28,661 nt of DNA from Archangium sp. (GTDB lineage Bacteria; Myxococcota; Myxococcia; Myxococcales; Myxococcaceae), in the NCBI GenBank assembly GCA_031367385.1, contig JANLPS010000449.1, forward strand, positions 1 through 28,661. Direction: 5' to 3'. This document shows, piece by piece, positions 1 through 24,412 of this stretch. Numbering within the stretch: the stretch's first letter is position 1; the number at the start of each line of letters is the position of its first letter. The notes beneath the pieces were generated by a model that was not told the origin of the DNA, did not search any database, and saw nothing but the letters and a program-made list of their open reading frames with translations. The position numbers and the translations under genes are program-made.

Positions 1-2
1 CC

Positions 3-560
3 CAGCTGTTCGAGGCGATGGAGAAGATGGCGACGACCGACGGGCTGACCGGCCTGCTCAACCACCGCACCTTCCAGAGCCGCTTCGACGAGCAGCTGGC
101 CACCGCGCGCCGCTACTCGCGCAAGCTCTCGTTCATCCTCACCGACATCGATCACTTCAAGTCGGTCAACGACACCTACGGGCACCCGATGGGCGATCAG
201 GTGCTCAAGGGCGTCGCCCGTATTCTGCGGGAGTGTGCGCGCGATACCGACATCGTGGCCCGGTACGGCGGCGAAGAGTTCGCGTTGATCATGCCCGAGG
301 CCGACACGAAGAACGCCTACGTGGTCGCCGAACGCATTCGCGAGCGGGTGATGAAAGAGATTTTTCAGACCGAGCAGGGCCCGCTGAAGATCACCTTGTC
401 GCTCGGCATCGCGACGTACCCCGATGTCGGCGCCGAGAAGCAGACGTTGATCGATCTCTCAGATCAGTGCCTCTATTTCGCCAAACGACACGGTCGCAAC
501 CAGTCGGTCACGGTGCAGCAGATGAACGCCGGTCGACCTCGGGCCAGTGAAGGGGCCTGA
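3..560 (+). CDS. Diguanylate cyclase, GGDEF domain (5'-truncated by the window edge)
   Basis: The frame is open from the window edge (QLFEAMEKM...). It has TDGLTGLLNHR, DIDHFKSVNDTYGH, the active site RYGGEEF and an RxxD I-site (RDTD). Confidence 0.95.
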   Translation, partial: QLFEAMEKMATTDGLTGLLNHRTFQSRFDEQLATARRYSRKLSFILTDIDHFKSVNDTYGHPMGDQVLKGVARILRECARDTDIVARYGGEEFALIMPEADTKNAYVVAERIRERVMKEIFQTEQGPLKITLSLGIATYPDVGAEKQTLIDLSDQCLYFAKRHGRNQSVTVQQMNAGRPRASEGA

Positions 561-1094: not shown

Positions 1095-1123
1095 TGAACG
1101 TTTGCCGGGCTCGTGGCATAGAC
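1095..1123 (+). promoter_or_regulatory. Putative ECF sigma promoter P1 (TGAAC-N17-CATAGAC)
   Basis: Resembles the motifs at 2050-2079 and 4966-4994. Its position would place the transcription start at about the GTG at 1129 (leaderless). The -10 deviates from CGT. Confidence 0.45.
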
Positions 1124-1128
1124 GAGCG

Positions 1129-2052
1129 GTGAAGTTCGTGGCGTTGGTGACATTGCTGACCGCGGTTGAGGGGCTCGCCTCGGTGGGCGTGGCTGTCTTG
1201 CCGATGGTGGGCGACCCTTCGCCTGGCTGCCGCGCCGATGCGCTCTTGGCCGCGCGGCTGGGCTCATCGCCCGTTGCCCGCATCGAGCCCGCTGAGAGCG
1301 CCGAGTGGTTGGTGGCGGTCGCTGCGTTGGCCGATGCCTGGAGGGTGACGCTCGAGCGCAGAGACGGCTCGAAGAAGATTCAACGTGACCTCAGCGATGC
1401 GCAGGGGTGCGATGACGTGGTCCTGGCAGCGCACTTGATCGTCGAACGCGCCCTGCGTGAGCTCGGCCCGGTGCCGTTCGATGACCCTGATCTCGCCGAC
1501 CCTGACCGCGCGGGCGTTGCTCCGCCGGCCCATCGCGCGTGGGGGCTGACGGCGACGGGCGCACTCCGGGCGGTGGCGATGGCCTTCGGTGGTGGGCTGC
1601 ACGCGCATGTTCGAATCACTGATCGGTGGCAGATGGGTGTGCTGGCGTCGATCACCACTGGCGATGTGTCGACGGTGACGATCGATGGGCTGACCCGGGG
1701 CACGATGACGATGACCCCGGGCACGGTCTGGCTGCACGCGGGGCCCTGCTTCGGGTCGACGAAGGTCAAGGCGTGCCCCGAGTTGGTGGCTGGCGTTCGG
1801 CTTTGGCAGGCCCGTGCCGCGGGCGAATATCTCTTTCAGGCGAGAGACACCTGGGCCGCTAACCCCCTGGTTGGACTCGCTGTTTCCGGTCGGGTCGACC
1901 TCCCGTTGCACCTGTTGCTCGAGCTGGGAGCGGTGGGCCTGTGGGCCCCCCTCGTGCCAGTTTTCGGGATTGCGGGTACGACCGACCCGACGTTTTCGCC
2001 TCCGCCCCTGGAGGTCGACTTCTTCGTGGGTCTCGGGTTTCATTTTGATTGA
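1129..2052 (+). CDS. Exported protein: N-terminal alpha/beta domain plus predicted C-terminal outer-membrane beta-barrel
   Basis: Signal-peptide-like start MKFVALVTLLTAVEG and a Pro/Asp linker. The C-terminal half is alternating-hydrophobic beta-strands ending VDFFVGLGFHFD (beta-signal-like). Two Cys pairs after the signal region. The ORF track starts at 1102. Confidence 0.7.
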   Translation: MKFVALVTLLTAVEGLASVGVAVLPMVGDPSPGCRADALLAARLGSSPVARIEPAESAEWLVAVAALADAWRVTLERRDGSKKIQRDLSDAQGCDDVVLAAHLIVERALRELGPVPFDDPDLADPDRAGVAPPAHRAWGLTATGALRAVAMAFGGGLHAHVRITDRWQMGVLASITTGDVSTVTIDGLTRGTMTMTPGTVWLHAGPCFGSTKVKACPELVAGVRLWQARAAGEYLFQARDTWAANPLVGLAVSGRVDLPLHLLLELGAVGLWAPLVPVFGIAGTTDPTFSPPPLEVDFFVGLGFHFD

Positions 2053-2079
2053 ACGCGACGACAGTGAGCCGACGTCTAC
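2050..2079 (+). promoter_or_regulatory. Putative ECF autoregulatory promoter P2 (TGAAC-N18-CGTCTAC)
   Basis: Typical ECF AAC...CGT geometry directly upstream of the ECF sigma gene. Confidence 0.55.
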
Positions 2080-2089
2080 GTCTGCCACG

Positions 2090-2674
2090 ATGTTGCTTTC
2101 ACTCGCCCTCAGCCCTGCCATGACTCCATCGAGTGACGCCTCGGTGCTGCTGGAGGCCTGCCGTCAAGGCGACTCCGCCGCCTGGAAACGCTTGTACGAC
2201 GTTCACTTCGAGTTCGCGCACCGCACCGCGCGGCGCCTCGGGGTCAGCCCGGGTGACGTCGAAGACGTGGTTCACGAGGCGTTCACCGTGGCCTGGCGAA
2301 AATTGGCCGACTTTCACACCGGGCGGTTCTCGACCTGGTTTTACCAAATCATCAGCCACGAAGTGACCGCGTACCTTCGCAAGAAGCGCGTGCGCGCGTT
2401 TTTCACCGGGCGGTGGGCCGACGAGACCGATCACGAAGTCTCTTCGGCCGAGGGCAGCGTGGCGGCGCGGCATTCACTGAGCCAGGTCGAGCAGGTGCTC
2501 GCCAAGCTCTCGAGCAAGAAGCGCGAGGTCTTCGTGTTGTTCGAGCTCGAAGGCCTGCCGCATGAACAGATCGCTGAGATGGTCGGGTGCCCGCCGCAGA
2601 CGGTGCGCACGCGGTTGCATTCGGCGCGCAGAGACTTCGAAGCGATCGCGCGCAAGCGGGGGGTGTGGCCATGA
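2090..2674 (+). CDS. ECF-type RNA polymerase sigma-70 factor
   Basis: Region 2: GDSAAWKRLY...DVEDVVHEAF...FSTWFYQI. Region 4: KREVFVLFELEGLPHEQIAEMVGCPPQTVRTRLHSAR. Start is ATG 2090 or ATG 2120. The stop overlaps the next gene (ATGA). Confidence 0.93.
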   Translation: MLLSLALSPAMTPSSDASVLLEACRQGDSAAWKRLYDVHFEFAHRTARRLGVSPGDVEDVVHEAFTVAWRKLADFHTGRFSTWFYQIISHEVTAYLRKKRVRAFFTGRWADETDHEVSSAEGSVAARHSLSQVEQVLAKLSSKKREVFVLFELEGLPHEQIAEMVGCPPQTVRTRLHSARRDFEAIARKRGVWP

Positions 2675-4959
2675 CTCCACGCGACGAAGAGCTGGAGCGG
2701 TTTCGGGCCCAGACGGCCGAGGTCGATGCGGGTGCGAAAGACCGGGTGTGGCGGCGGTTGGCTGTTTCGACGGCGCCCGAAGCGAGGCGTTCGTGGTTCG
2801 GCCCGGCGCTGATTTTGACGGGGTGCGCGGCGGCGATTGTCGCGCTGGTGTCGGCTGTCGCTCGGCCTGCGGCGTTCGAGACTCGCGGGGCGCAGTTCGT
2901 CGCCCGTGGCCACGCGGAGGTTCGTGCGGCGGCTCCGGGCCAGCTCATGGTGACCCGCGGTACGCTGGCGGTTTCGGCGTGGGGTGATCGGGTGACCGTG
3001 CAAGCTGGGGCGCACACGATCGTGGCTTCGTCGGCGGTGTTCGGGCTGAAAGTCGCCGCCGAGTCGATCACCGTTGAGGTTCGCCGCGGGGTAGTGCTGG
3101 TCGATGGCGCCGAGGTGACGAGGCGGTGGCCGGCCGGGGCTCGGGCGCTTGAGTTTGATGAGCTGGAGGTGGCTGCGGGTGCGACTGCGAACAGTGGTGC
3201 TGCAGACCCGGCGTCGACCACGATGCCGGCAGAACGGTCGAGCGTCGGCGGCAATGACCTCGCACCAGCCGTGCGGTCGGGTGAATTGGGCGCGGCCATA
3301 GGTGGTGCGGCCTCTGGTGCGTCGAATGGCGCGGCTGCTGCACAACTGGCCGGGGCTGCGACCGCGGCGGTGGGTGGTGCTGCGAGTCGCTCCGGTGCTT
3401 CGAATGGAGCGACTGCTGCACAACTTTCTGGGGCTGCGAACGCGGTGGTCGGTGGGGTCGTGGTTCCCTCCGGTGGGTTGAATGACGAGACTGCTGCTCA
3501 ACTTGCCGTGGCGGCGAACGAGGCGGTCGGCGGTGCTGCGAGACGCTCCGGTGGGTCGCACGGCGCGACGGCTGCGCAACCGGCCGTGGCTGCGACCGCG
3601 GCGGTCGGTGGTGCTGCGAGTCCCTCCGGTGCTTCGAATGGAGCGACTGCTGCACAACTTTCAGGGGCTGCGAACGCGGTGGTCGGTGGGGTCGTGGTTC
3701 CCCCCGGTGGTTTGAATGACGAGACTGCTGCTCAACTCGCCGTGGCTGCGAACGAGGCGGTCGGCGGTGCTGCGAGACGCTCCGGTGGGCCGCACGGCGC
3801 GACGGCTGCGCAACCGGCCGTGGCTGCGAGCAAGGCGGTCGGCGGTGCTGCGAGACCGTCCGGTGGGTTGAATGACGAGACTGCTGCTCAACTTGCCGTG
3901 GCTGCGAGCAAGGCGGTCGGCGGTGCTGCGAGACCGTCGCGTGGGTCGAATGGCTCGACGCAACTCGCTGGGGTTGCGAGCGCGACGGTCGGTGGTACCT
4001 CCGGTGCGCCGAATGGCGCGACCGCTCAGCGTCTCATTGAAACTGGGGCTGCGAAAGCGACGGCCGGTGCCGTTGGTGCGTCGAATGGCGCGACGGCTGC
4101 GCAACCGGCTGAGACCTCGAACGCGACGGGCGATCGTGCCGTGAGTCGAGCAGGTGCGTGGAATGGTGCGCCGCCGCGTCACGGCGCGATCTCAAAAACA
4201 GGTATCGATCTTCGCGAAACTGCGCGGGTCGGGCCCGACGCCGCCAGCGCAACGGTCGGCGGAGTGGTGACTCAAGCCTCAGGTGAAGCAGCCCCGCGCA
4301 ACGCGAAAATGGGCGTTGGTTCGGTCGCCGGTACGCGCACCCCGAGCGGGGCCGACGGGCGGGCTGCGAATGGTGCGGCTGCAACGGAGACCGCGGGTAT
4401 TTCAAATGCACCTTCGCCAGACGCGACTCGCGGAGCGACACAATCGGGAGTTGCTTCTGGCGCCACCCACCTCACTGCTCCCCAACCTGCCGCCGGAGTC
4501 TTGAATGGTGGTCTTTCGCGAGACGCGACGGTCACTCCGCCGATCGCTTCACGAGACGCCACTGGCAACGTGGTGACCGGTTCAAGCCCACCTGTCGCTC
4601 GGGCTGAATCGTTTGGCTCGTGCGAAGGAGGCACGGCTCGCAGCGCGTCGAAGAGTGAGCCCGCCGCGCTGACGAATGCACTTCGCGAAGAGGCAGCGTT
4701 GCTTCAACGAGGCGAATACGAGCTTCGAACCCTGCGCGACGCGGCCGCCTCGTTGGGCACGCTCCAGCGCGCGGCGAGCAAGTTCCCCAGAGGGTCACTG
4801 CAGCAGGAGGTCGCGCTGACCGAGCTCGAAGCGCTCCGCGACTTGGAGCGCTGGCCCGAGCTGATCACGGCGGTCGAGGCCTTCGCCCGCCGCTACCCGC
4901 ACAGTGAGCGGCTCGACGAAGTGCGTGCCCTCGGTGCCTTCGCCGCGAAGCAGCGCTGA
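2671..4959 (+). CDS. Putative membrane anti-sigma factor: short cytoplasmic N-terminus, one TM helix, FecR-like beta domain, very long Ala/Gly repeat linker, C-terminal TPR-like domain
   Basis: ATGA-coupled to the sigma gene. N-terminus includes KDRVWRRL; TM is ALILTGCAAAIVALVSAVA; FecR-like segment LMVTRGTLAV...VFGLKV...VEVRRGVVLVDG; C-terminus LREEAALL...FPRGSLQQE...AFARRYPHS. Confidence 0.8.
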   Translation: MTPRDEELERFRAQTAEVDAGAKDRVWRRLAVSTAPEARRSWFGPALILTGCAAAIVALVSAVARPAAFETRGAQFVARGHAEVRAAAPGQLMVTRGTLAVSAWGDRVTVQAGAHTIVASSAVFGLKVAAESITVEVRRGVVLVDGAEVTRRWPAGARALEFDELEVAAGATANSGAADPASTTMPAERSSVGGNDLAPAVRSGELGAAIGGAASGASNGAAAAQLAGAATAAVGGAASRSGASNGATAAQLSGAANAVVGGVVVPSGGLNDETAAQLAVAANEAVGGAARRSGGSHGATAAQPAVAATAAVGGAASPSGASNGATAAQLSGAANAVVGGVVVPPGGLNDETAAQLAVAANEAVGGAARRSGGPHGATAAQPAVAASKAVGGAARPSGGLNDETAAQLAVAASKAVGGAARPSRGSNGSTQLAGVASATVGGTSGAPNGATAQRLIETGAAKATAGAVGASNGATAAQPAETSNATGDRAVSRAGAWNGAPPRHGAISKTGIDLRETARVGPDAASATVGGVVTQASGEAAPRNAKMGVGSVAGTRTPSGADGRAANGAAATETAGISNAPSPDATRGATQSGVASGATHLTAPQPAAGVLNGGLSRDATVTPPIASRDATGNVVTGSSPPVARAESFGSCEGGTARSASKSEPAALTNALREEAALLQRGEYELRTLRDAAASLGTLQRAASKFPRGSLQQEVALTELEALRDLERWPELITAVEAFARRYPHSERLDEVRALGAFAAKQR
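3319..3942 (+). repeat. In-frame 78-bp (26-aa) tandem repeat, 8 full units with a 234-bp higher-order period; degenerate copies continue to about 4170
   Basis: Units such as ASNGATAAQLSGAANAVVGGVVVPSG, GLNDETAAQLAVAANEAVGGAARRSG and GSHGATAAQPAVAATAAVGGAASPSG. AATGACGAGACTGCTGCTCAACT recurs at 3481, 3715 and 3871 (spacings 234 and 156). Confidence 0.95.
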
Positions 4960-4965
4960 ATACTT

Positions 4966-4994
4966 TGAACGTGAGCCCGGCACGCGACGTTCAC
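4966..4994 (+). promoter_or_regulatory. Putative ECF promoter P3 (TGAAC-N17-CGTTCAC), also an inverted repeat TGAACGT-N14-ACGTTCA
   Basis: Lies in the 68-bp gap before the lipoprotein gene, which has SD AGGAG at 5017-5021. Confidence 0.6.
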
Positions 4995-5027
4995 GCCGCT
5001 GCCTTCACCACCTTTTAGGAGAATGAA

Positions 5028-6473
5028 ATGAAAAGAACCGTCACGCTCACCCTCAGTCTGCTCGCCTGTTGCGCGCTGGTCGTTCTCAGCTGCGGTCGAG
5101 CCGACGTCGCGAGCCGATTCGTCAAGACCCAGTTGGTCAAATCCTCCGATGCGACGGTGATTACCGTCACCGCGACCGAGAGCGCCGCGCTCACAGGCAC
5201 CGTGCTCGCTCTCGAGAAGAACGCCCTGATGTACGACACGACGCTCACTCTCGAGCTTGGGCCCTCGATGGTCTCCGCAGACAACAACGCCGGGCCGGTC
5301 GCGGTCTGGGGCCCAAGCGGGCTTCTCTTTCACGCTCCCGTCACGATGACGCTGCCCTTCACCTTGCCTGCAGGCAAAAAGGTCACTGAGCTCAACATCT
5401 TGCAACGCGAGAGCGATGGCACGATCAAACGAATTCCCAGCTCGGCGCTGACCATCGATTCGACGCACTCACGGGTCACCTTCGCGGTGACTGGCTTCTC
5501 GAGCTTTCAAGCCAACACGGCCCCGTTCTCGGAGCTCGACGGCGGCCAGGTCGACATTGATGCCGGCACGAACACTTGCACGGTCAACGCCGACTGCGCC
5601 TTTGCGTACTACTGCGCCCATGGTCACTGCCAGAGCCAGTCGTGGATCGACGCTGGCGCCTGGCCCGTCGTGACCGACGCCGGAGTCGTTCATTGCGCGG
5701 ACAACGGCGACTGCGCGGCCGGCCTCTATTGCCACGGGCCCGAGTCAATCTGCGCGGCGGTGTGGTGCCAGCAAACGAGTGACTGCCAAGCCGATCAATC
5801 CTGCAGCAACTCCAGATGCGAGACGGCCACGGCGATCGACGGTGGAGCGACGTGCGTGCCGATCAAAGAAGTCTGCAACGGCATCGACGACGACTGTGAC
5901 GGCCTCGTGGATGAGGGCAGCAGCTGCGCCTCCGACGGCGGAGCGGCGTGCTACCCGACCCAGGAGCTCTGCAACGGCTACGACGACGACTGCGATGGCG
6001 TGATCGACGACGGAGCCTGCCCAGGTGATGGCGGCGCCGCCTGCTTGCCTCGCCAAGAGGCCTGCAACGGCTACGACGATGACTGCGATGGTCTGATCGA
6101 CGAGGGCGTCTGCGCTGACTTTGATGGCGGCGCGGCGTGCTACCCGACCCAAGAGGTCTGCAATGGGTACGACGACGATTGTGACGGGCTCATCGATGAA
6201 GCGGGTGCCTGCTCGAATGATGCCGGCTCGGCATGCTTTCCGACCCCGGAGGTCTGCAACGGCCTCGACGACAACTGTGACGGCTACGTCGACAACGCCT
6301 CGGCAGTCTTCTGCGGCATTGGCGCGTGCCGTCGAAGCGTCAATTCGTGCTTCGATGGCGGGTCGGCGACTTGTACGCCCGGCAGCCCGAACGCCGAGAT
6401 CTGCAACGGCATCGACGATGACTGTGACGGCATCGTCGACGACGGGCTGGCCTGTATCGACGGCGGCCGCTGA
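5028..6473 (+). CDS. Cys-rich lipoprotein with a ZU5-like N-domain and six MopE-related (putative metal-binding) repeats
   Basis: Strong SD and lipobox VLS-C. GPVAVWGPSGLLFHAPVTMTLP is ZU5-like. Three small Cys modules precede six ExCNGxDD(D/N)CDGx(V/I)D repeats. Confidence 0.88.
   Translation: MKRTVTLTLSLLACCALVVLSCGRADVASRFVKTQLVKSSDATVITVTATESAALTGTVLALEKNALMYDTTLTLELGPSMVSADNNAGPVAVWGPSGLLFHAPVTMTLPFTLPAGKKVTELNILQRESDGTIKRIPSSALTIDSTHSRVTFAVTGFSSFQANTAPFSELDGGQVDIDAGTNTCTVNADCAFAYYCAHGHCQSQSWIDAGAWPVVTDAGVVHCADNGDCAAGLYCHGPESICAAVWCQQTSDCQADQSCSNSRCETATAIDGGATCVPIKEVCNGIDDDCDGLVDEGSSCASDGGAACYPTQELCNGYDDDCDGVIDDGACPGDGGAACLPRQEACNGYDDDCDGLIDEGVCADFDGGAACYPTQEVCNGYDDDCDGLIDEAGACSNDAGSACFPTPEVCNGLDDNCDGYVDNASAVFCGIGACRRSVNSCFDGGSATCTPGSPNAEICNGIDDDCDGIVDDGLACIDGGR
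5868..6443 (+). repeat. Six coding repeats ExCNGxDDxCDGxxD
   Basis: Copies start at 5868, 5964, 6057, 6153, 6249 and 6396 (period 93-96 bp for the first five). Confidence 0.92.
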
Positions 6474-6484
6474 TTCACCGACCA

Positions 6485-6526
6485 GGGGCGACTGTCTGAT
6501 TGCATGACAGTCGCTCCAGGTTGTTT
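6485..6526 (+). terminator. Stem-loop after the lipoprotein gene, possible intrinsic terminator
   Basis: GGGGCGACTGTC (6485-6496) pairs with GACAGTCGCTCC (6506-6517): 12 bp with one G-U and a 9-nt loop. Only a weak U-rich tail (TTGTTT) follows. Confidence 0.55.
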
Positions 6527-6543
6527 CGTGTGTGGCATCGTCC

Positions 6544-6596
6544 GACACCCGAATCATCAGTGATCTCAAGCGGGTGTCACGCGTCACTGCTAACTT
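6544..6596 (+). promoter_or_regulatory. Possible extended -10 promoter (TGcTAACTT) with an upstream inverted repeat GACACCCG-N19-CGGGTGTC
   Basis: TG at 6588-6589 and TAACTT at 6591-6596, 13 nt before ATG 6610. Perfect 8-bp IR arms at 6544-6551 and 6571-6578. Confidence 0.35.
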
Positions 6597-6609
6597 GCCA
6601 CCGCCGAGC

Positions 6610-7887
6610 ATGGGTATTCGAGGGCAACTGACGCTGCTGATCCCCGCCGTTCTTTTGCTCGGCCTTGGCATCGTCTCGGCCATTTTTCTTCAAACTGAAC
6701 GTCGAGACGCGCTCGAAGACTTTCGGTTGCTCAATGAAAAAGTGCTGCAGACCATGAGCGTGACGGTCGCGGTGCAGGTCGCTCAAAACGACATGGGCGC
6801 GCTCGACACCTTGGTCGCGCAGCTCTCGGAGTCGCTCTCGGAGCGAGATCTGCGAGAGCTTGCCGTGCTCGATGAGAATGGTCGGGTGTTGGCACACAGC
6901 AAGCCCGAGACCTTCAACACCGTGCTGACCGATGACTTCACCAAGCAGGCGATTGTCTCTCCAGTGGCGACCTGGGCGCGCGAGGGCGAGGTGTTTCGCA
7001 TCTCGGTGCCAGCCATCTCTGGGGTGCGCTGGGCGACGGTGACCGCGACGTACTCCCTCGAACGCTTTCAAGCCGCGCTGAACCGAACCGTGCAGCGGTT
7101 GTTGGTGGGCTCGTTGCTGCTCTTCACCGTGATGGGCGGCGTGATGTTTCTCGGCGTCGGCCTGCTGGTGGTGCGCCCGATTCGAACCCTTCAGCAGACT
7201 GTTCGTCGCATGGGGGAGGGGCACCTGACGGCTCGAGTGCCTCGGTTGGCCGGGCGCGAAATGCGCGAGCTGTCAGACAACATCAATGGCATGGCGGCGG
7301 CCCTGCAGTCAGAGCGTGAAAACCTCGAGCGCAGCGTGGCCGAGCGCACCAAGGAGCTGCAGGAGCTCAACGCGCGTTTGCAGTTGCTGGCGGTCACCGA
7401 CGGGCTGACCGGGGTGTTCAACCACCGGCGATTTCAAGAAGCCCTGCAGACCGAGTTGGTGCGCGCCGAGCGGCACAAGCGGCCGCTGTCGGTCTTGATG
7501 ATCGACGTCGATTTCTTCAAGAAGATCAACGACGCGATGGGCCACCCCGCGGGTGACGACCTGCTGCGCCGCCTGGCCGAGGTGCTCGGCGCCGATCTGC
7601 GGCAGACCGATTTGATCGCCCGCTATGGCGGCGAAGAGTTCACCGTGCTGCTGCCAGAGACCACCAAGAACGAGGCGATTCAAGTCGGTGAGCGCATGCG
7701 CGCGGCGGTCGAAGAGAAGGTAAACCAGGGCAGCCCGTGGAAGCAGAAGGTCACCGTCAGTCTCGGCGTCGCCACGTACCCCGACGACGGCATGACGGGC
7801 GAGGGCGTGCTCGAGGCGGCCGATCAAGCGATGTACATCGCCAAACGCCAAGGTCGTAACCGTGTCGTTGGAGCGCGCGCTGCATGA
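6610..7887 (+). CDS. Membrane-bound sensor diguanylate cyclase (TM, periplasmic domain, TM, HAMP, coiled coil, GGDEF)
   Basis: Two TM helices; HAMP RPIRTLQQTVRRMGEGHL...EMRELSDNINGM; VAERTKEL signalling helix; RYGGEEF with RQTD I-site. Start moved from 6532 to ATG 6610. Confidence 0.92.
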   Translation: MGIRGQLTLLIPAVLLLGLGIVSAIFLQTERRDALEDFRLLNEKVLQTMSVTVAVQVAQNDMGALDTLVAQLSESLSERDLRELAVLDENGRVLAHSKPETFNTVLTDDFTKQAIVSPVATWAREGEVFRISVPAISGVRWATVTATYSLERFQAALNRTVQRLLVGSLLLFTVMGGVMFLGVGLLVVRPIRTLQQTVRRMGEGHLTARVPRLAGREMRELSDNINGMAAALQSERENLERSVAERTKELQELNARLQLLAVTDGLTGVFNHRRFQEALQTELVRAERHKRPLSVLMIDVDFFKKINDAMGHPAGDDLLRRLAEVLGADLRQTDLIARYGGEEFTVLLPETTKNEAIQVGERMRAAVEEKVNQGSPWKQKVTVSLGVATYPDDGMTGEGVLEAADQAMYIAKRQGRNRVVGARAA

Positions 7888-8786
7888 GGTGCCTGTTCGC
7901 GCTGGTCGTCATCGCCGCCTGTACGCCGCTCGCCGAGCATTCTGTGCCCACTGCGCCGGTGCCGGTCGCCGCGACGGGGGTGTACCTGCCGCCGCCAGAG
8001 CTCAAGAAGCTCCGCTTCGGCCTCATCCCCTACCTCACGAAGGAGACCATTCGGCGTGGGCACGTGCCCATGGGCGAATACCTGAGCAAGTCGCTCAACG
8101 TGCCGGTCGACCTGGTCATCGCCGACAGCTACGGCGACGCGATCAACCGGCTCGAGAAGGGCGAGTTCGATCTCGTCGAGTTGAGCCCGTACGCCTTCGC
8201 GCAGGCCGAGCGGCGGGTGAAGTTGCGATGTCTGGCCCAGAGCATTCTCAACGGCTCGGCCACGACCACCGGGTACATCGTGGTGCGCGACGACAGCCCG
8301 ATTCGCACCTTGGGCCAGCTCAAAGGCTCGCAGTTCGCGTTCGTCGACCCCTCGTCGACCGCCGGCTACCTCTACGCGGCGAAGTCACTGCGCGACAACG
8401 GCATCGACCCCAAGCGCGACTTCGCGACGGTCGATTTTCTGGGCAACCATGAGGCGGTGCTGCTGGCGATTTTCGAAGGCCGGGTCGACGCGGGCGCGAC
8501 GTACCAGGGGGCCTTTCACGCGCTTCAGGTCTCGAAGGGCATCGACCCGTTGTCGTTTCGGGTCATCGGCAAAACGCCGCGAATGCCGAACGATGTGCTG
8601 TGTGTGCCGGCGAGCACTCCAGGTCAGCTTGGTGACGCGATCGCGCGAGCCGTGCTCTCGTTGTCGAGCCGAAGCCGCGACGGCAGGGCTGTGCTGGGCC
8701 CGCTCAACATGAACGGGTACCAGGCCGCTGACGACAGCACCTTCGATGGAGTGCGGCGCATCGCGGCCGAGGTCGGGCCTCCTTGA
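7884..8786 (+). CDS. Phosphate/phosphite/phosphonate-type (PhnD-like) substrate-binding lipoprotein
   Basis: Lipobox IAA-C; LRFGLIPY; SYGD; AFVDPSSTAGY; GNHEAV; VDAGA; MPND. ATGA overlap with the cyclase gene. Confidence 0.88.
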   Translation: MRCLFALVVIAACTPLAEHSVPTAPVPVAATGVYLPPPELKKLRFGLIPYLTKETIRRGHVPMGEYLSKSLNVPVDLVIADSYGDAINRLEKGEFDLVELSPYAFAQAERRVKLRCLAQSILNGSATTTGYIVVRDDSPIRTLGQLKGSQFAFVDPSSTAGYLYAAKSLRDNGIDPKRDFATVDFLGNHEAVLLAIFEGRVDAGATYQGAFHALQVSKGIDPLSFRVIGKTPRMPNDVLCVPASTPGQLGDAIARAVLSLSSRSRDGRAVLGPLNMNGYQAADDSTFDGVRRIAAEVGPP

Positions 8787-11576: not shown

Positions 11577-13199
11577 GTGTATCGGCTGCTCGGGCGCCTC
11601 GAGACTGGTGATTTGTCTGAGCTCTTTCGGGCCGAAGTCGACGGTCAGCCGGTGGTGGTGAAGCTGTTTCACGCTCGAACGACTGACGCGGCCTACGCCA
11701 AGGTGGTGGCCGATGCCGCCATTCACCTCCGGCCGGTGTCGCACCGCGGCATTGCCAAGGTGCTTCGGGTTGGGCTTACGGGTACGCGGCTGGCGGTGGT
11801 GCGTGATGGGTTCGGGCGGTACACGCTAGGGCAGGCGCTGATTCGGCTGAATACCCGCGAGGTTCACTTGCCGCCGGCGGTCGCGCTGAGCGTGATGGTC
11901 GAGCTGCTCGAGGCCGTCGAGGCGGCGCATGGGGTCGGCGTGATTCATGGAGCGATCACTCCGGGCAACGTGTTGCTGGCCGAAGATGGTGCCGTGGGTG
12001 TGTCTGATTTTGGCGCGCTGGCGGCGTTGCAGGCCTCGCCTTCGCTGCGCCGCGCCTTCGCCGGCAAGGGGCGGGGCAGCTACCGGGCTCCGGAGCTTGG
12101 CGCGAATGAGGCCGCGACGGTGGCGAGTGACGTGTTTGCGCTTGGGGCGCTGATGTACGAGCTGCTGACGATGCGAGAAGCGTCATCGGGCAACTCGCAG
12201 TTGGCGGTGCGCCGTGAGCGAATACCGGTGCCCTCGCGAGTGGTGCGCACGTTGAATTCGCGAATCGACGGCGTGGTGATGCGGGCGCTCGAGACCGACC
12301 CGAATCGGCGCTTTGGGTCATGCGCTGCCTTCTCGGGCGAGGTGCGTGAGTACCTCGCGTCGAGCGGCGGGGTGCCATCGCAAGACGACCGCCGGAAGTT
12401 CGTCGACGCGCTGTTTCCAAAAGACGTGGTGCTCGGTGCGCTGGGCCCGGTGCCCTTCGAGCAGTTCGAGATCAGCGACATCACTGGGGTTTTGGCGATT
12501 GAGGCAGAGCTCTCGGAGGTAGCGACGCGGGCGCCGTTTTCGAGCGATCGGGTCGAGACTGAGCCAGAGGTCCCCGTCGTCCCGTGGGATGTGCCTCCCC
12601 CAGCAGTGCTCGCCGAACCCTCTCGTGCTGAGCCCCATTCTCATGGTGAGCCCGTCGAGCCACGAACCTCGGGCGATGGGCCGCGAACCCCGAAGCAGCC
12701 CAGAACCTCTCATGGTGAGCCTGTCGAACCGCGAGCCCCCGAGGCCCCGCCCGGCGACGCGCCCCCAGCGCGCACCGACGAAGAGATCTCGCACACCGGC
12801 CCTCGACCCGACCACCAATCACGAGCGGCACCCACCGATACAGATCACCCCTCACTCGCCTCGCGCCTCGCCCGAATCGCGCCTTTCGTCGTTGGCACGT
12901 TCATCGTCGGCGCCGTCGCCACCGCCCTGGTCTGGGCCTCACGCGCACCTCCCGAGAGCAACGGCTGCCACCAACCCCCTCCCGCCGCCGGAGCCGCGTA
13001 CCTCATGCTCGGCGCCCCCATCGGCTCCGAAGTACAAATCGACGGTTTGCGAGTCTGCACCAACCCCGCGAACCGCCTCGTGCTGGCGCCAGGTGACCGG
13101 CGCATTCGCGTCACCCACCTGAAAACCGGCCAGGTCTACGAAGCCTCGACCCACTTCGAGGCAGGCAAGACCGTCAAGGTCACCGCGGTGTTCAAGTGA
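11577..13199 (+). CDS. Membrane Ser/Thr kinase-like protein (probable pseudokinase) with Pro-rich linker, TM helix and PEGA-like C-terminus
   Basis: VVVK, DFG, YRAPE and SDVFALG are present, but the catalytic loop reads IHGAITPGN. TM is FVVGTFIVGAVATALVWA; C-terminus APIGSEVQIDG...LAPGDRRIRV. Confidence 0.88.
   Translation: MYRLLGRLETGDLSELFRAEVDGQPVVVKLFHARTTDAAYAKVVADAAIHLRPVSHRGIAKVLRVGLTGTRLAVVRDGFGRYTLGQALIRLNTREVHLPPAVALSVMVELLEAVEAAHGVGVIHGAITPGNVLLAEDGAVGVSDFGALAALQASPSLRRAFAGKGRGSYRAPELGANEAATVASDVFALGALMYELLTMREASSGNSQLAVRRERIPVPSRVVRTLNSRIDGVVMRALETDPNRRFGSCAAFSGEVREYLASSGGVPSQDDRRKFVDALFPKDVVLGALGPVPFEQFEISDITGVLAIEAELSEVATRAPFSSDRVETEPEVPVVPWDVPPPAVLAEPSRAEPHSHGEPVEPRTSGDGPRTPKQPRTSHGEPVEPRAPEAPPGDAPPARTDEEISHTGPRPDHQSRAAPTDTDHPSLASRLARIAPFVVGTFIVGAVATALVWASRAPPESNGCHQPPPAAGAAYLMLGAPIGSEVQIDGLRVCTNPANRLVLAPGDRRIRVTHLKTGQVYEASTHFEAGKTVKVTAVFK
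12621..12737 (+). repeat. Short direct repeats (TCTCATGGTGAGCC(C/T)GTCGA(G/A)CC) inside the kinase linker, resembling a REP-like element
   Basis: Copies at 12639 and 12708 (69 bp apart) both encode SHGEPVEPR. A partial copy TCTCGTGCTGAGCCC starts at 12621. Confidence 0.7.
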
Positions 13200-13858
13200 C
13201 CACTCTCACCTCGGTACGCGTCTTTGCCGTCGAAGATCAGCCCCAGCTGCTCAAGAGCCTGCTCAAGTCACTCGCGCTCTACCCGGAGCTCGAGGTGGTC
13301 GGCACCGCCCAAGAAGGCGAAGCTGCGATCGACCAGATCACCGTCATCAAGCCCCAGCTGGTGCTCCTCGACCTCGAGCTGCCCGGCATCGACGGCATCG
13401 AGGTCACCCGCCGCTTGAAACGGCGCGTGCCCGAGGTCGAAGTGCTCATCTTGACCTCGTTCGACGACGAGCAAAAAGTCTACGAAGCGATGCAGGCCGG
13501 AGCTGCTGGCTATCTCGTCAAGCGTGTCGGCCCCGCGAAGATTCGCTCGGCGATTCACGACGTCATGTCGGGCGGTACGGTGCTCGAGGCCATCATCGCC
13601 AAGCGCTTCTGGCACTATTTTCACTCGCTTCGAACCCAGCACGCGCAGCCCCAGAACCCCTGGCAGCTCACCCTGCCCGAGCTCGAGGTGCTGCGCTTCG
13701 TCGCAAAGGGGCTCTCGAACGCCGAGGTCGGGCAGGCGATGTCAATCGAGCGGCGCACCGTGAAGACCCACCTCTCCCACGTGTACCGAAAGATGGGAGT
13801 CCACTCCCATGTGGACGCGGTCGTTCTCGCCGTCAAAGCAGGCATCGTCGAGATCTAG
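13196..13858 (+). CDS. NarL/LuxR-family response regulator (REC plus HTH)
   Basis: VEDQ, VLLDLELPGIDG (phospho-acceptor Asp), ILTSF, GYLVK, and LTLPELEVL...GLSNAEVG...TVKTHLSHVYRKMGV. GTGA overlap with the kinase gene. Confidence 0.95.
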   Translation: MTTLTSVRVFAVEDQPQLLKSLLKSLALYPELEVVGTAQEGEAAIDQITVIKPQLVLLDLELPGIDGIEVTRRLKRRVPEVEVLILTSFDDEQKVYEAMQAGAAGYLVKRVGPAKIRSAIHDVMSGGTVLEAIIAKRFWHYFHSLRTQHAQPQNPWQLTLPELEVLRFVAKGLSNAEVGQAMSIERRTVKTHLSHVYRKMGVHSHVDAVVLAVKAGIVEI

Positions 13859-13936
13859 CGCGCTGCATTTCGCTAAGCGAAGTGGCCGGTCGGCAGCTAC
13901 GGTGTGTGCGCATTTCACGTCGCAAGGAGCTTCGAT

Positions 13937-15256
13937 TTGACCACCCGTTCAGCCCGCTCGTCGAAGGGGCCAGTGTTGCCTCCGGCGCTCACCGCCATCG
14001 CCAAGTCAGTCATCGAAACGAAGCTGCCCAACGGCCTGCGCGTTCGCTTGATGCCGAACAAGAACGCCCCGACCTGCAGCTACTACACGTTCTTTCGAGT
14101 CGGCTCGCGCAACGAACGCCCCGGCCTGACCGGCATCAGCCACCTCTTCGAGCACATGATGTTCAACGGCGCGAAACGCTACGGCCCGGGCGAGTTCGAC
14201 AGCACTCTCGAGTCGAACGGCGGCACCTCGAACGCGTACACCTCGAATGACGTCACCGTGTACTACGCCGACTTCATGTCTGAAGCGCTCGAGAAGGTCA
14301 TCGACCTCGAGTCTGACCGCATGAAGTCGCTCAACATCACGCCCAAGATGCTCGAGAGCGAGCGCCAGGTGGTGATGGAGGAGCGCCGCATGCGAGTCGA
14401 CAATGAAGCCGACGGCGTGATGGACGAAGAGCTCTCGACGCTGGTCTTCAAGGCCCACCCCTACCGCTGGCCCGTCATCGGGTGGATGGGCGACATCGAG
14501 AACATCAACCGCGACGACTGCATGTCGTATTTTCGCACCTATTACGCGCCCAACAACGCGACCATCTACGTGTGCGGCGACTTCGACCCCAAATCGACGC
14601 TCAAGATGATCAAGAAGTATTACGGAGGCATCAAGCCGGGGCCGGCCGCCCCCGCGGTGCTCGACTCGGAGCCCGAGCAAAAAGGTGAGCGCCGCGCCTC
14701 GGTCAAGTACCCGGCGCAGGCACCCTCGTTGTTGATCGCCTGGCGTGGCCCGCGCGCGGTCGACGCCGACACCCTCACGCTCGATGTGCTGCAGTACGCG
14801 TTGAGCGTCGGCCAATCGAGCCGGCTCACCAAGGCGCTGGTCTACGAGCAAGAGTCTGCCGTCTCGGTCTCGGTCGATTGGTCGTGGCGCTTCGACCCGG
14901 GCCTGTTTCTCATCTCAGTCGAGCTCAAGCCAGGCGCAGACCCCGCGAAGACCGAAGCGGCGGTGTACGAGCAGCTCGAGAAAATCGCCGCGAATGGCCT
15001 CGAGCCCCGCGAGCTGCAAAAGGCGCAGAACAACCTCTCGGCGATGATGTTTCGCGAGCTCTCGACCAACAACTCGCGCGCACACTCCTTGGGCAACTAC
15101 GAGATGATGCTGGGCTCGTGGCGTGAAGGGCTCGCGCTGCCGACGAAGTACGAGGCGGTCACCTGCGATGACGTCAAAGCCGCCGCCGCGAGATACCTGA
15201 CGGCCGATCGACGCAGCGTGGTCACTCTGGTGCCGACTCCCGAGGCGTCAGCGTGA
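13937..15256 (+). CDS. M16 family zinc metallopeptidase, catalytic subunit
   Basis: GISHLFEHMMF (inverted HXXEH), NAYTS, ERQVVMEERR and YYAPNNA. Start is TTG 13937 after SD AAGGAG (13924-13929). Confidence 0.95.
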   Translation: MTTRSARSSKGPVLPPALTAIAKSVIETKLPNGLRVRLMPNKNAPTCSYYTFFRVGSRNERPGLTGISHLFEHMMFNGAKRYGPGEFDSTLESNGGTSNAYTSNDVTVYYADFMSEALEKVIDLESDRMKSLNITPKMLESERQVVMEERRMRVDNEADGVMDEELSTLVFKAHPYRWPVIGWMGDIENINRDDCMSYFRTYYAPNNATIYVCGDFDPKSTLKMIKKYYGGIKPGPAAPAVLDSEPEQKGERRASVKYPAQAPSLLIAWRGPRAVDADTLTLDVLQYALSVGQSSRLTKALVYEQESAVSVSVDWSWRFDPGLFLISVELKPGADPAKTEAAVYEQLEKIAANGLEPRELQKAQNNLSAMMFRELSTNNSRAHSLGNYEMMLGSWREGLALPTKYEAVTCDDVKAAAARYLTADRRSVVTLVPTPEASA

Positions 15257-16593
15257 AGCGCGCGCCGCTGCGGCCCTTCGTCTTGCCCCCGCATCGTCGA
15301 CACACCTTGCCCAATGGGCTCACCGTGCACGTGATGACGCGCAGTGAGTTGCCCCTGGTCGGTGCGAAGATGATCATTCGGGCCGGTGATGTTGGCGACA
15401 GCCCAGGGCACCTCGGCGTGGCCGATTTCGCGGCCCGGTTGATGCGTCGAGGCGCCGCGGGCAAGAACGCCGACACCCTGAACGAAGAGATCGAGTTTCT
15501 CGGAGCCACCCTCAGTGGCTACGCCGAAGAAGAGCACACGACGCTCTCGGTCGGCTCGGCCACCAAACACCTGCCCGCGATGCTCGACCTGTTGTCGCAG
15601 GTGCTGCTGCGGCCCGATTTTCCCGACAAAGAAATCGAGCTCGCCCGCCGGCGATCACTCGCGCAATTGGTCAATGAATTCGATGACCCCGGTGCGTTGG
15701 CCGATCGCGCGATCAGCCGTGCGGTCTGGGGCCAGCACCCCTACGGCCACGAGATGCACAGTGGCCGCGCCGACCTCGAGGCGATCACCCGCGGCGACTT
15801 GGTTCGATTTCACCGCGAACGCCTGGGCCCGAAGATCGCGCACCTGTTCATCGTGGGCGATGCCGAATTCGATCGCACCGTGCCGATGATCGAGAAGCTC
15901 TTCGGTGGGTGGCAGGGTGGGCCCACCTCGAACCCCGTCGTGCCCGAATGGCAGGGCATGACCCGCGCCGGCGAGGTGATCATCGTCGACAAGCCTGATC
16001 AGACCCAGGTTCAGCTCCGCATCGGCGCCAAAGGCACCCGGCGTGGCCACGCCGACCTGTACCCGGTCACGGTGATGAACAGCGTGCTCGGTGGCGGGTT
16101 CACCTCGCGGTTGATCAACGAGATTCGCGTCAAGCGCGGCCTCTCGTACGGGGCCAGCAGCACCTTCGAAAACCTCGGGGTCGCCGGCATGTTCGACATC
16201 TCGAGCTTCACCAAGACCGAGAACGTCAACGCGCTCATCGACGTCGCGCTCGGCGAGGTGGCGAAGCTCAAGAAGAAGGGTGCCAGCCCCAAAGAGGTCG
16301 ACACCGTCAAGCGCTACATCATTGGCGTTTTCCCCTCGAGGCTCGAGACCAACGAGTCGATCGCCGGAGTGCTCAGCGACATCGAGAGCTACGGCCTCAA
16401 CGCAACGTGGATCGAGGACTACCGCGGCAACATCGACGCGGTCACCACCGCACAGGTCAACCAAGCCGCCGAGAAGTACCTCTTCGAGAAGAGCGGCAAG
16501 GTGATGGTGCTGGTGGGCAACGCCGCGCAGCTCGAGAAGCGCGTCAGCGCGTACGGCCAGGTCTCGGTGATCAAACCCAAAGACCTGGAGTAA
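15253..16593 (+). CDS. M16 family peptidase, non-catalytic partner subunit
   Basis: LPNGL, HPYG and VLGGGFTSRLINEIRVKRGLSY (R/Y pair); HXXEH is replaced by DFAAR. GTGA overlap with the catalytic subunit. Confidence 0.92.
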   Translation: MKRAPLRPFVLPPHRRHTLPNGLTVHVMTRSELPLVGAKMIIRAGDVGDSPGHLGVADFAARLMRRGAAGKNADTLNEEIEFLGATLSGYAEEEHTTLSVGSATKHLPAMLDLLSQVLLRPDFPDKEIELARRRSLAQLVNEFDDPGALADRAISRAVWGQHPYGHEMHSGRADLEAITRGDLVRFHRERLGPKIAHLFIVGDAEFDRTVPMIEKLFGGWQGGPTSNPVVPEWQGMTRAGEVIIVDKPDQTQVQLRIGAKGTRRGHADLYPVTVMNSVLGGGFTSRLINEIRVKRGLSYGASSTFENLGVAGMFDISSFTKTENVNALIDVALGEVAKLKKKGASPKEVDTVKRYIIGVFPSRLETNESIAGVLSDIESYGLNATWIEDYRGNIDAVTTAQVNQAAEKYLFEKSGKVMVLVGNAAQLEKRVSAYGQVSVIKPKDLE

Positions 16594-16610
16594 CCCGAAG
16601 TTCGAAAAGC

Positions 16611-17156
16611 TTACGGGCTCGACGGCTTGGCGTCAGGCGCGGGTGGCTTGTCGGCCGTGCCCATCACCACGCTGCCCGGCTTGGCGTGCGTGTAAGAGGC
16701 TTGGGTCTCGGCGCCTGACTTGCCGTGAATCAGGGTTTTGTCGAACGCCTTGAACGCCACTTCGACCTTGTCGAACCGAACCGCCGACACCAGGCCGAGG
16801 CCGAAGGTCGGGTGGTCGATGACGTCGTCAACCTTGTAGGTGTCTCGCGTCGAGTACTTGCGGGCGCGCGCCACGTCTTTGCCAGCGAGGCGCTCTTCCC
16901 ACGTGACTACGACCTTGCTGCTCTTGCTGGCGCGCGGCTTGGCGGCCTTCTTCACCTTGCCGGCGACCAGGGGCTGAACCCCTTTGTACGCATGCACGGT
17001 GTGGCAGGTGTTGCACTCGACCTTCACTACTTTCGGGCCGACCATCGCGATGATGGTGTGCGCGAGATTGAGCTCGCACTTGTTGCAGGCGGCGTCGATT
17101 TCACCACCGACGATGATCGATGGAGGAGGAATGGTCGCAGTCGTTTCGGTCGTCAT
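16611..17156 (-). CDS. Hypothetical protein: N-terminal Zn-binding module plus C-terminal Tudor-like domain
   Basis: CNKC...H...CNTCHTVH, a Lys-rich linker, then YKVDDVIDHPTFGLGLV...VEVAF. Confidence 0.8.
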   Translation of the reverse strand: MTTETTATIPPPSIIVGGEIDAACNKCELNLAHTIIAMVGPKVVKVECNTCHTVHAYKGVQPLVAGKVKKAAKPRASKSSKVVVTWEERLAGKDVARARKYSTRDTYKVDDVIDHPTFGLGLVSAVRFDKVEVAFKAFDKTLIHGKSGAETQASYTHAKPGSVVMGTADKPPAPDAKPSSP

Positions 17157-17336
17157 GGGCAAATGGAACGTTTCGTGAAGAGGGGGAAATGACGCGTAAT
17201 CCTTCGACAGCCGCAGAACAAGCCCTCGTTCACGATCACCCTCTGTAGGAGCACCACTCGATTGACTCTACCCGTCACCACCAGTACTCCACCCAAAGCG
17301 CGGGCGGGCAGCCGCTCGACGCGGTCTGAGCACCAC

Positions 17337-18506: not shown

Positions 18507-18507
18507 G

Positions 18508-18633
18508 CTAAATGGGGCCGAAGGTGGTCACCTCAATCGTGAAGATCCCGTAGGCGCCGTCGGAGCCAGTGACGAAGACGTCGACGGTGAGCAAGACGAA
18601 ATTGAAGGTGCCGACCACCAGAGAAGTGCGCAT
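18508..18633 (-). CDS. Possible 41-aa small protein or gene fragment
   Basis: MRTSLVVGTFNFVLLTVDVFVTGSDGAYGIFTIEVTTFGPI. 34 of 40 post-start codons end in G/C, and the ORF sits in the alr-mlaE gap without overlapping either gene. Confidence 0.4.
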   Translation of the reverse strand: MRTSLVVGTFNFVLLTVDVFVTGSDGAYGIFTIEVTTFGPI

Positions 18634-18758
18634 GGCCCGGCGCCCAGCAAAAGCAAGACCAGTTGGCGGTCCCTCGGCCGTGCGAATGGGCGAAATGCGC
18701 GAATGCGACAACTCGGTCAGGGTGAAACGGCGATGGTGCGGTAAGGTCGGCGCGCGAA

Positions 18759-19583: not shown

Positions 19584-19586
19584 CTC

Positions 19587-20363: not shown

Positions 20364-20402
20364 CGTGACTCCCTCGCTAGGGCAAGTAGGGTCGGCCTCA
20401 CT

Positions 20403-21956: not shown

Positions 21957-21969
21957 AGTGACTTGAACA

Positions 21970-23561: not shown

Positions 23562-23646
23562 CGAATGACCGATGTCGCGATGTGTCGACCCACCTGTCGC
23601 GGAGTGCCCTTGGCGCAATCGACCGGTGCGGCTAGGAAGCACGCCA

Positions 23647-24126
23647 ATGGCTCCGAAAATCTCGAACGAAAACGTCGGGCAGATGCTCACCCGCGCCAAA
23701 GACGACCAGGCGATCACGCAGAAACAGTTCGACGAGCTGCTCGCCGGGCTCGAGCGCAAAGACACCCTTGGCGTGCTCGAGACTGCTTCGAAGATCGAGA
23801 CCGTGCTCACCAACGGCCTCGCCCCCCTGGAGGCCGAGACGGCCAAGGCCCGCAAGGCGTTCAGCGCCTCCTCGTTCGACGCGAAAGCCGACCCGACGCC
23901 CGACAAACTGTTGATCGCTGACGGCCGTGGCGAAGATCTCTCGGCAGCGGCGACCAACTTCTCGACCCAAATGACGAAAATGAGCGACGTGAAGAACATC
24001 GTTCGTGGCCTGCTCGCCGGCATCGACAAGGCGGGGCTCTCACCAGCCGATTCGAGCCGACTCAAAGCCGTCTTTGATGCCGAGCTCGTCAGCATCGCCA
24101 CGCGCATGCGCCTGGGTGGCGAATGA
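23647..24126 (+). CDS. Hypothetical helical protein
   Basis: ATG 23647 is preceded by AGGAAG; high GC3; ATGA overlap with the next gene. Confidence 0.75.
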   Translation: MAPKISNENVGQMLTRAKDDQAITQKQFDELLAGLERKDTLGVLETASKIETVLTNGLAPLEAETAKARKAFSASSFDAKADPTPDKLLIADGRGEDLSAAATNFSTQMTKMSDVKNIVRGLLAGIDKAGLSPADSSRLKAVFDAELVSIATRMRLGGE

Positions 24127-24404: not shown

Positions 24405-24412
24405 GCCCAGCT

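Follow-up and report, generated by a model that had tools for sequence, protein, structure and literature searches.

How does an extracytoplasmic function (ECF) sigma factor come to respond to the outer membrane when no TonB-dependent receptor is encoded beside it? The question is raised by a four-gene cassette in a contig of Archangium sp. (assembly GCA_031367385.1, contig JANLPS010000449.1, positions 1 to 28,661 of the forward strand; this whole stretch of 28,661 nucleotides is referred to as the window). The four co-oriented genes that a sequence-only reading of the window had described were found as open reading frames (ORFs) at 1129-2052, 2090/2120-2674, 2671-4959 and 5028-6473, and encode a small barrel protein, an ECF sigma factor, a putative anti-sigma factor and a lipoprotein. 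The cassette is genuine and is kept across myxobacteria and their relatives, the same four-gene order being present in 48 distinct loci that include a second copy in this Archangium genome. We consider that it probably forms a two-piece, TonB-independent trans-envelope switch, in which the barrel protein would grip the anti-sigma protein within the periplasm. The features of the cassette are the following.

1095..1122, plus strand: ECF-type promoter-like site before the barrel gene, TGAACG-N15-GCATAGA (15.4 bits)
1129..2052, plus strand: barrel protein of 307 amino acids (AlphaFold, Foldseek, structural matches)
about 1189-1464, plus strand: predicted periplasmic alpha/beta domain of the barrel protein with a Cys pair (TolB-N/CsgG-like), preceded by a predicted signal peptide (read from the sequence)
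about 1525-2049, plus strand: predicted eight-stranded outer-membrane barrel, preceded by a Pro linker
2050..2078, plus strand: ECF-type promoter before the sigma gene (14.1 bits)
2090..2674, plus strand: ECF sigma factor, with its start at ATG 2090 or at the in-frame ATG 2120 (Pfam Sigma70_r2 and r4_2; TIGR02937)
2671..4959, plus strand: putative anti-sigma factor of 762 amino acids (hydropathy, alignments, family Pfam)
3311..3959, plus strand: 78-bp tandem array of 8.3 copies with a 234-bp higher-order unit, encoding the anti-sigma linker (lineage-specific)
4966..4993, plus strand: ECF-type promoter before the lipoprotein gene, TGAACG-N15-ACGTTCA (20.1 bits)
5028..6473, plus strand: lipoprotein of 481 amino acids, lipobox VVLS-C22, 41 Cys (sequence)
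about 5112-5531, plus strand: ZU5 domain of the lipoprotein (profile and structure matches)
5493..5501, plus strand: G156-F157-S158, equivalent of the ZU5/GAIN self-cleavage site (xF-S, cut after F; model and NLRP1 alignment)
5868-6440, plus strand: six PF11617-type repeats in the Cys-rich acidic tail of the lipoprotein (Pfam)
6485..6517, plus strand: closing hairpin with a 12-bp stem and a weak U-tract (folding; single copy in the genome)

The cassette is defined computationally by its gene order, folds, promoter distribution and a single sigma clade. Co-occurrence in other genomes, on which the sequence-only reading had made its case depend, was found from three different anchor genes. With the sigma factor as anchor (E<=1e-30) matches were present in 14 of 41 genomes, and 20 of the 21 matches outside this genome were retrieved. 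Together with the two own copies, 19 of 22 sigma-anchored loci had the full four-gene order; the other three were one locus cut by a contig end, one orphan and the weakest match, which was without partner genes. The barrel protein matched in 36 of 301 genomes of the phylum. Forty new regions were retrieved from this search, with eight weak or contig-end places left out, and 36 of them carried barrel, sigma and TPR anti-sigma genes. Twenty-three of these also had the ZU5 lipoprotein, and 13 were three-gene loci without the lipoprotein domain; the remaining regions were cut by a contig end (two) or had no barrel match in that scan (two). Scores for the ZU5 lipoprotein as anchor were bimodal, with 42 places above 112 bits and all others below 66, and 33 of the 42 lay inside cassettes already known. 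Among the nine new places three were behind a sigma and a TPR anti-sigma gene (one of them a different sigma type), one was cut and five were orphans.

In a tree of 182 sigma factors (quick mode, midpoint root) all 48 four-gene loci were located within one 52-row clade with a support of 99 in the Shimodaira-Hasegawa-like approximate likelihood ratio test (SH-aLRT). The other four rows of this clade were two cut loci and two orphans. The clade was nested, together with the three-gene loci, in a 78-row clade (SH-aLRT 99). The next-nearest group, mostly Polyangiaceae and including Sorangium cellulosum So ce56, was found outside the clade and without barrel and ZU5 matches. The 17 best named related records were all metagenome-assembled genomes, mostly labelled Myxococcaceae, Archangiaceae or Myxococcales, and no barrel match was found in the two largest sampled genera of the family (0/29 and 0/18 genomes). 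A conserved core of barrel, sigma and anti-sigma genes with a variable lipoprotein had been expected. The core was borne out, while the lipoprotein has a ZU5 start that is fixed in the clade and only its tail varies.

A barrel fold, which the sequence-only reading had proposed, is predicted for the product of gene 1; it has eight strands and is of the OmpA/OmpW type. The AlphaFold model (30 sequences) had a mean predicted local distance difference test score (pLDDT) of 88.9 and consisted of an alpha/beta domain of about 92 residues, a linker and eight long antiparallel strands. Foldseek gave OmpA with E 2e-6, and the best structural matches were eight-stranded outer-membrane barrels with Z 16-17. 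Barrels matched in these comparisons were OmpA, OmpX, OmpW, NspA and OprF. The comparison with 3dzm gave Z 17.4 and a root-mean-square deviation (rmsd) of 3.0 over 161 aligned residues, and that with OmpW gave Z 17.1. From the whole-protein matches the N-terminal domain reads as a TolB-N/CsgG-like fold: its best matches were CT253 (Z 9.8, rmsd 2.3 over 92 residues) and 6lqh_A, a chain of the curli complex (Z 9.7), and TolB was among the others. The STN signalling domain was absent among the 50 fold matches listed for the whole protein, no search having been made with the N-domain alone. Residues R66 and C74 of the N-domain are invariant and C14 is nearly so. Pfam and NCBIfam gave no family for the barrel protein, its profile gave nothing useful against the sequences of solved structures, and a protein-cluster look-up returned only unnamed Myxococcota clusters, with barrel families as leads scoring below 0.9.

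The ECF identity of the sigma factor was confirmed by matches to Pfam Sigma70_r2 and r4_2 and to TIGR02937. Its stop codon overlaps the start of the anti-sigma gene as ATGA, the coupling already noted from the sequence, and a 4-base overlap was found in 42 of 49 related loci. By hydropathy the anti-sigma factor has a cytoplasmic N-terminus of about 45 amino acids, in which a conserved ERVWRRL motif is located, and one transmembrane helix (residues ~46-64). A shortened FecR-like beta domain follows, then an Ala/Gly linker of about 480 amino acids and a BamD/CpoB-like TPR at 4636-4956. The sequence-only description of a transmembrane, FecR-like and TPR-like protein held for the helix in the window protein, and for the two domain labels at the level of the family. 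The window protein by itself gave no Pfam FecR or TPR match at E<=0.01 and only a faint BamD/YfiO match. Among 48 aligned family anti-sigmas Pfam identified FecR in 18 (best E 6e-10) and a YfiO/BamD-type TPR in 40, and the window protein aligns to the FecR-matching members; it is therefore from family members, and not from its own sequence, that it takes both labels. The TPR profile matched BamD (E 3e-6) and CpoB (E 3e-4). None of the 25 families listed across these 48 proteins was the FecR C-terminal domain, whose place is taken by the TPR. The Gly-Thr motif of FecR, which we take to be the self-cleavage site, had matches in 9 of 42 anti-sigmas but not in that of the window.

The window anti-sigma is the longest of 42 (range 266-762 amino acids), and its same-genus orthologue has 350. 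It owes this record length to the repeat linker, whose array the sequence-only reading had left unmentioned. Independent contigs from four sediment metagenome runs (two studies) matched the flanks of the array almost letter for letter and broke inside 3420-3900, so that the repeat copy number is that of this assembly. Linker repeat expansions were also seen in the barrel protein of two other loci (L007 and L008; up to about 715 amino acids). With expansion on either the barrel or the anti-sigma side, the length of the bridge between them seems free to grow from both.

Contact between the two proteins was addressed by complex prediction, in which each partner was given its own 45-row alignment. 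The sequence-only reading had suggested the TPR-like domain as the partner of the barrel protein, and the prediction agrees with it: the barrel N-domain and the TPR scored 0.79, 0.79 and 0.75 in the interaction prediction score from aligned errors (ipSAE), compared to 0.17 for the best control. The ipSAE mark was attained by 116 of the 157 solved pairs and by 2 of the 215 mismatched ones, counts that are rough when partners have their own alignments. At least 90% of the contacts agreed between runs, and the pLDDT of the partners was at least 84. The barrel N-domain is thus predicted to bind the tip of the anti-sigma TPR, and in the modelled pose its last helix lies in the TPR groove. R87 of the barrel N-domain (mature numbering) is predicted to pair with E58 of the TPR; 32 of 45 loci have R/E at these positions, and two more have R/D. 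The interface columns of the TPR were more conserved than the rest (p 0.036).

Which genes would such a sigma factor serve? A promoter matrix was trained on sigma-upstream DNA from 17 loci of other genomes and gave the consensus TGAA[CG]G-N15/16-[ACG]C[AG]TTCA. In the window the motif TGAACG-N15/16-[AG]C[AG]T.. was found at 1095, 2050 and 4966, each site scoring above 60 of 60 shuffles. The sequence-only reading had seen this shared motif before three genes. All three sites are present, but having one ahead of the barrel gene sets this locus apart. At a score of at least 13 bits the promoter preceded the sigma gene in 44 of 48 loci, the lipoprotein gene in 41 of 48 and the barrel gene in 1 of 40, namely that of the window. 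The 31 loci outside the training set gave 29 for sigma, 30 for the lipoprotein and 1 of 23 for the barrel at the same score. The barrel gene therefore normally lies outside the regulon, and the lipoprotein, having its own sigma-type promoter, is the likely regulated output, as had been supposed from the window. No promoter was found before the anti-sigma gene at 10 bits or more (0/19 loci), nor in the three-gene loci at 15 bits or more (0/13).

The TGA of the -35 element of the sigma promoter is at the same time the stop codon of the barrel gene in the window (2050-2052), and such an overlap was found for 29 of 44 sigma sites; the -35 TGA of the lipoprotein promoter coincides with the upstream stop codon in 15 of 41. 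The rest of the -35 and the -10 fall outside the upstream gene. A scan of the whole genome gave 14 sites of at least 20 bits, both lipoprotein promoters among them, compared to 0-4 with column-shuffled matrices. Most of the other sites look like chance, and no wider regulon is claimed. The second full cassette of this genome (G000:C129:19051-22669, minus strand, L003) has the same promoter before its sigma and lipoprotein genes; its anti-sigma is short (266 amino acids), and the start of its barrel gene is lost at the contig end.

The conserved part of the lipoprotein has the fold and the sequence of a ZU5 domain. By itself the window protein matched ZU5 weakly; the lipoprotein profile matched ankyrin ZU5 with E 2e-8, and Pfam ZU5 was found in 18 of 19 members at E<=0.1. 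The domain model (pLDDT 94.6) matched ankyrin ZU5 with Z 14.5 and rmsd 2.3 over 128 aligned residues, and also matched CARD8, UNC5b, NLRP1 and GAIN domains. Lipoproteins of the sigma clade always begin with the ZU5 domain. The Cys-rich lipoprotein announced from the sequence is present; its Cys-rich tail is not the defining part. Tails range from 54 to 580 residues with 0-89 Cys, and 3 of the 42 have repeats of the PF11617 type. Copper binding by these repeats was considered as the purpose of the family and was rejected on this count and because four tails are without Cys. Liao and colleagues are said to have treated bacterial GAIN/ZU5/Nup98 domains in 2014 and may already describe such lipoproteins.

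F157 (model residue 137) comes right ahead of the last strand, and the alignment with an NLRP1 fragment ending at 1212 stops at this residue. The nucleophile of NLRP1 is Ser-1213, and the His at -2 is described as largely dispensable in Nup98 and replaced by Ser in CARD8 (PMC3210808; statements from this and the other papers cited here refer to the available parts of their text). The F-S/T pair is kept in 32 of 42 lipoproteins (22 GFT, 6 HFT and 4 GFS). Self-cleavage at F157/S158 is possible from the sequence, and as ten lipoproteins have lost the nucleophile, cleavage is not essential to the family. A conserved stretch with the consensus VGSRYVKS... (window 5094-5190) between the lipobox and the ZU5 core was observed to mark cassette-type lipoproteins. 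Most generic ZU5 matches start only near profile position 35, and the stretch may be a docking or sorting tag.

Parts of the cassette were also observed apart from it. An orphan sigma factor of the same clade (G000:C277:38691-39260, minus strand) has no barrel, anti-sigma or lipoprotein gene alongside and is located upstream of what look like genes for a sigma-54 activator and for a peptidase-ABC exporter accompanied by HlyD-like partners; its counterpart was found in a same-genus genome (L015). In another locus (L096:320-3760) a ZU5 lipoprotein without the promoter follows an out-of-clade sigma and a TPR anti-sigma gene, possibly a reshuffled module. An orphan ZU5 lipoprotein (L097:7956-9306) carries the promoter of the cassette at 17.8 bits together with an HFT site, and its tail looks fasciclin-like by eye. 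A cassette is present elsewhere in its genome, and this lipoprotein is a candidate target in trans.

Taken together, we favor a mechanism modelled on known systems. The periplasmic domain of the barrel protein would grip the tip of the anti-sigma TPR and thereby shield the anti-sigma factor, whose N-terminus would hold the sigma factor, as the analogy to FoxA/FoxR and Dma1/Das1 suggests. If the outer membrane or surface were disturbed, the grip would loosen and the anti-sigma would be exposed to periplasmic and RseP-type proteolysis; a gene for an RseP-like M50/PDZ protease is present in the genome (C273). The freed sigma factor would then transcribe the operon of sigma and anti-sigma and the gene of the ZU5 lipoprotein from the shared promoter type. 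Newly made anti-sigma would provide negative feedback, and the level of the barrel protein, whose gene is normally without the promoter, would be a fixed set-point. The lipoprotein would be the dedicated output and might feed back as a co-sensor. Given how strongly the lipoprotein tail varies, the switch would most likely read the physical condition of the surface or outer membrane and not one small ligand. Sigma sequestration, anti-sigma proteolysis and the signal are what we infer. The switch would give a concrete function to receptor-less myxobacterial FecR-TPR anti-sigmas and to an unnamed barrel family. Interface residues can be named for the cassette, its promoter is defined, a single target is dedicated to it, and its parts are all small enough for rebuilding in a laboratory host.

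Several points weigh against such a switch. The cassette loci are kin, so that their counts are not independent, and some of them were found with profiles that had themselves been made from members of the cassette. Two sigma factors of the 52-row clade are orphans, and five of the nine newly anchored ZU5 lipoproteins lie outside cassettes. As the -35 TGA overlaps stop codons, part of the promoter conservation is shared with coding needs. The interface columns of the barrel N-domain were not more conserved than the rest (p 0.31), and the complex score is a measure of model confidence, while TPR grooves often accept helices. If the lipoprotein were the real sensor, which we hold to be unlikely, it would cleave itself between F157 and S158, the last strand would keep the two parts joined in the manner of NLRP1/CARD8 and adhesion G-protein-coupled receptors (GPCRs), and a pull or binding at the Cys-rich tail would pass through the barrel to the anti-sigma. 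The ZU5/GAIN fold with a site in register with NLRP1 1212/1213, the retained F-S/T pair with its canonical HFT in six members, the largely dispensable -2 His (PMC3210808) and a fixed domain with an exchanged tail are all consistent with this. However, 10 of the 42 cassette lipoproteins are without the nucleophile, ankyrin ZU5 domains are the closest structures, and barrel, sigma and TPR occur without a ZU5 gene in 13 loci of the wider family. Ankyrin ZU5 domains are binding modules that are not known to cleave. Unlikely as well is a full adhesion-GPCR-like logic, in which a self-cleaved, lipid-anchored ZU5/GAIN lipoprotein with an exchangeable adhesive tail would sit on the small outer-membrane barrel, and surface force or contact would free the ECF sigma through the barrel-TPR clasp, with no TonB or transported ligand.

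RcsF-OmpA is a model for a barrel displaying a lipoprotein, and a barrel of eight strands lacks the width to carry a ligand the size of a siderophore. The barrel protein could accordingly be mainly a surface-display or anchoring partner of the lipoprotein, the TPR contact only holding the module together while the anti-sigma senses something else through its FecR-like domain. We find this quite improbable. The distances of barrel and ZU5 do correlate (rho 0.49), about as highly as those of other pairs, but co-inheritance alone predicts such a correlation, and the values among the four genes (rho 0.26-0.53) show co-inheritance only. Moreover, in the 13 loci without a ZU5 lipoprotein the barrel still stands next to sigma and TPR anti-sigma, and it is generally not co-regulated with the lipoprotein (1/40). 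Ordinary FecR-type signalling, with the barrel as a bystander and control by a TonB-dependent transducer elsewhere or by a kinase, as suggested for ECF267, is highly improbable. FecR matches in 18 of 48 family anti-sigmas, 12 TonB-receptor barrels and one STN-domain ORF in the genome, and a Ser/Thr kinase gene in the window (11577-13199) would fit it. Yet the STN ORF (C547) is not one of the 12 receptor matches, a TPR stands where FecR has its C-terminal domain (25 families listed, 48 anti-sigmas), just 6 of the 61 locus records had the kinase motif, and the barrel gene adjoins in every uncut four-gene locus. The 12 receptor matches are all on other contigs than the cassette. A crude length and C-terminus screen for TonB receptors flagged four ORFs in the 61 locus records. 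The module of the window is without a TonB-dependent receptor, as had been read from its sequence, the adjacent outer-membrane gene being the 307-residue barrel.

The hairpin said to close the block was found as a strong fold despite its weak U-tract: the region 6470-6540 had a folding energy of -33.1 kcal/mol (z -4.2), equalled by 0 of 200 shuffles. A terminator scan did not call it, and a sigma-70 scan gave no plus-strand promoter or terminator. The cassette lies between two diguanylate cyclase genes and is preceded by a GNAT gene (flanks at window 1-560 and 6532-8786); the downstream cyclase is of the Cache-HAMP-GGDEF type and overlaps a gene for a phosphonate-type binding protein. These neighbors are not prominent in the other loci viewed, so that the cassette looks inserted. 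Window 11577-28639 contains ordinary housekeeping genes, including the Ser/Thr kinase, a LuxR-type response regulator, two M16 peptidases, alanine racemase, MlaE/ABC/MlaD, DUF2625, TruA and a Clp ATPase.

How does the cassette relate to known systems? No description of it was found in the literature covered, which consisted of titles, abstract starts and the available parts of PMC12288465 and PMC3482391, with most subscription journals outside. The sequence-only reading had known no characterised system of this layout. This holds for the cassette itself, while published neighbors exist in ECF21 subgroups with a separate barrel gene and in ECF267 (PMC7826278). On our best reading the cassette works like Pseudomonas cell-surface signalling and like Bacteroides Dma/ECF21, and is a member of neither. 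With Dma1/Das1 (ECF21, Bacteroides thetaiotaomicron) and Reo/EcfO it shares an ECF sigma, a single-pass anti-sigma, an outer-membrane barrel of eight strands (predicted for the cassette), a long disordered tether in the periplasm, lipoprotein targets (there NigD) and the lack of a TonB receptor (PMC10927553). In Dma/ECF21 anti-sigma and barrel are one polypeptide; a separate barrel gene occurs in some ECF21 subgroups (PMC7826278, supplement). In the cassette they are separate genes in 48 of 48 four-gene loci; the anti-sigma ends in a TPR, and the barrel gene is located upstream (-1), with its own TolB-N/CsgG-like domain and a predicted non-covalent link to the TPR. As target the cassette has a ZU5 lipoprotein; it belongs to the Myxococcota instead of the Bacteroidota, and its promoter is TGAA[CG]G / CATTCA compared to GCAACC / CGTCT.

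FecI/FecR/FecA and FoxI/FoxR/FoxA have the translational coupling of sigma and anti-sigma and, at the level of the family, the FecR-like periplasmic beta domain in common with the cassette (PMC11637429). The signalling domain of FoxA contacts the C-terminus of FoxR and protects FoxR from proteolysis (PMC11637429), and in the cassette an N-terminal periplasmic domain of the barrel protein is likewise predicted to meet the anti-sigma C-terminus. In contrast to Fec and Fox, the cassette barrel is eight-stranded, has no plug, gave no STN match among the 50 listed and is not the induced target. The TPR replaces the STN-like C-terminal domain of FecR, and the Gly-Thr motif is confined to the nine family members. 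ECF267 resembles the cassette at the family level: it comprises myxobacterial ECFs that lack a TonB receptor and have at +1 a putative anti-sigma with FecR-like and TPR parts (PMC7826278). Its description draws on Sorangium and Chondromyces; 1-3 kinases lie close by, a conserved promoter is lacking, and the available text is without barrel or lipoprotein (PMC7826278). The cassette, set apart by this description only, has a conserved promoter (44/48) and a fixed barrel and lipoprotein. Its kinase motif count (6/61) refers to locus records of about 9.7 kb, duplicates included, which are shorter than the 10-gene context of that paper; the window kinase gene lies 5 kb past the cassette. The available group descriptions of ECF216 and ECF220 do not fit, and that of ECF210 is too sparse to judge.

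The lipoprotein shares the predicted fold and the xF-S/T site before the last strand (cut after F) with the ZU5/GAIN domains of NLRP1, CARD8, PIDD, ankyrin and adhesion GPCRs, and an N-terminal position in a secreted protein with the ZU5 domains of bacterial surface proteins (PMC3210808, PMC3482391). It differs from the known domains, as far as these sources describe them, in its lipid anchor, in the Gly at -2 in most members, in a conserved N-terminal extension of about 35 residues and in its tie to an ECF cassette. A ZU5/GAIN-fold domain with a retained cleavage position is thereby placed in a bacterial signalling cassette. Beside the TonB-dependent transducer and the fused Dma anti-sigmas, the small barrel, the TolB-N/CsgG-like domain and the TPR would represent a third, modular wiring from the outer membrane to an ECF sigma factor.

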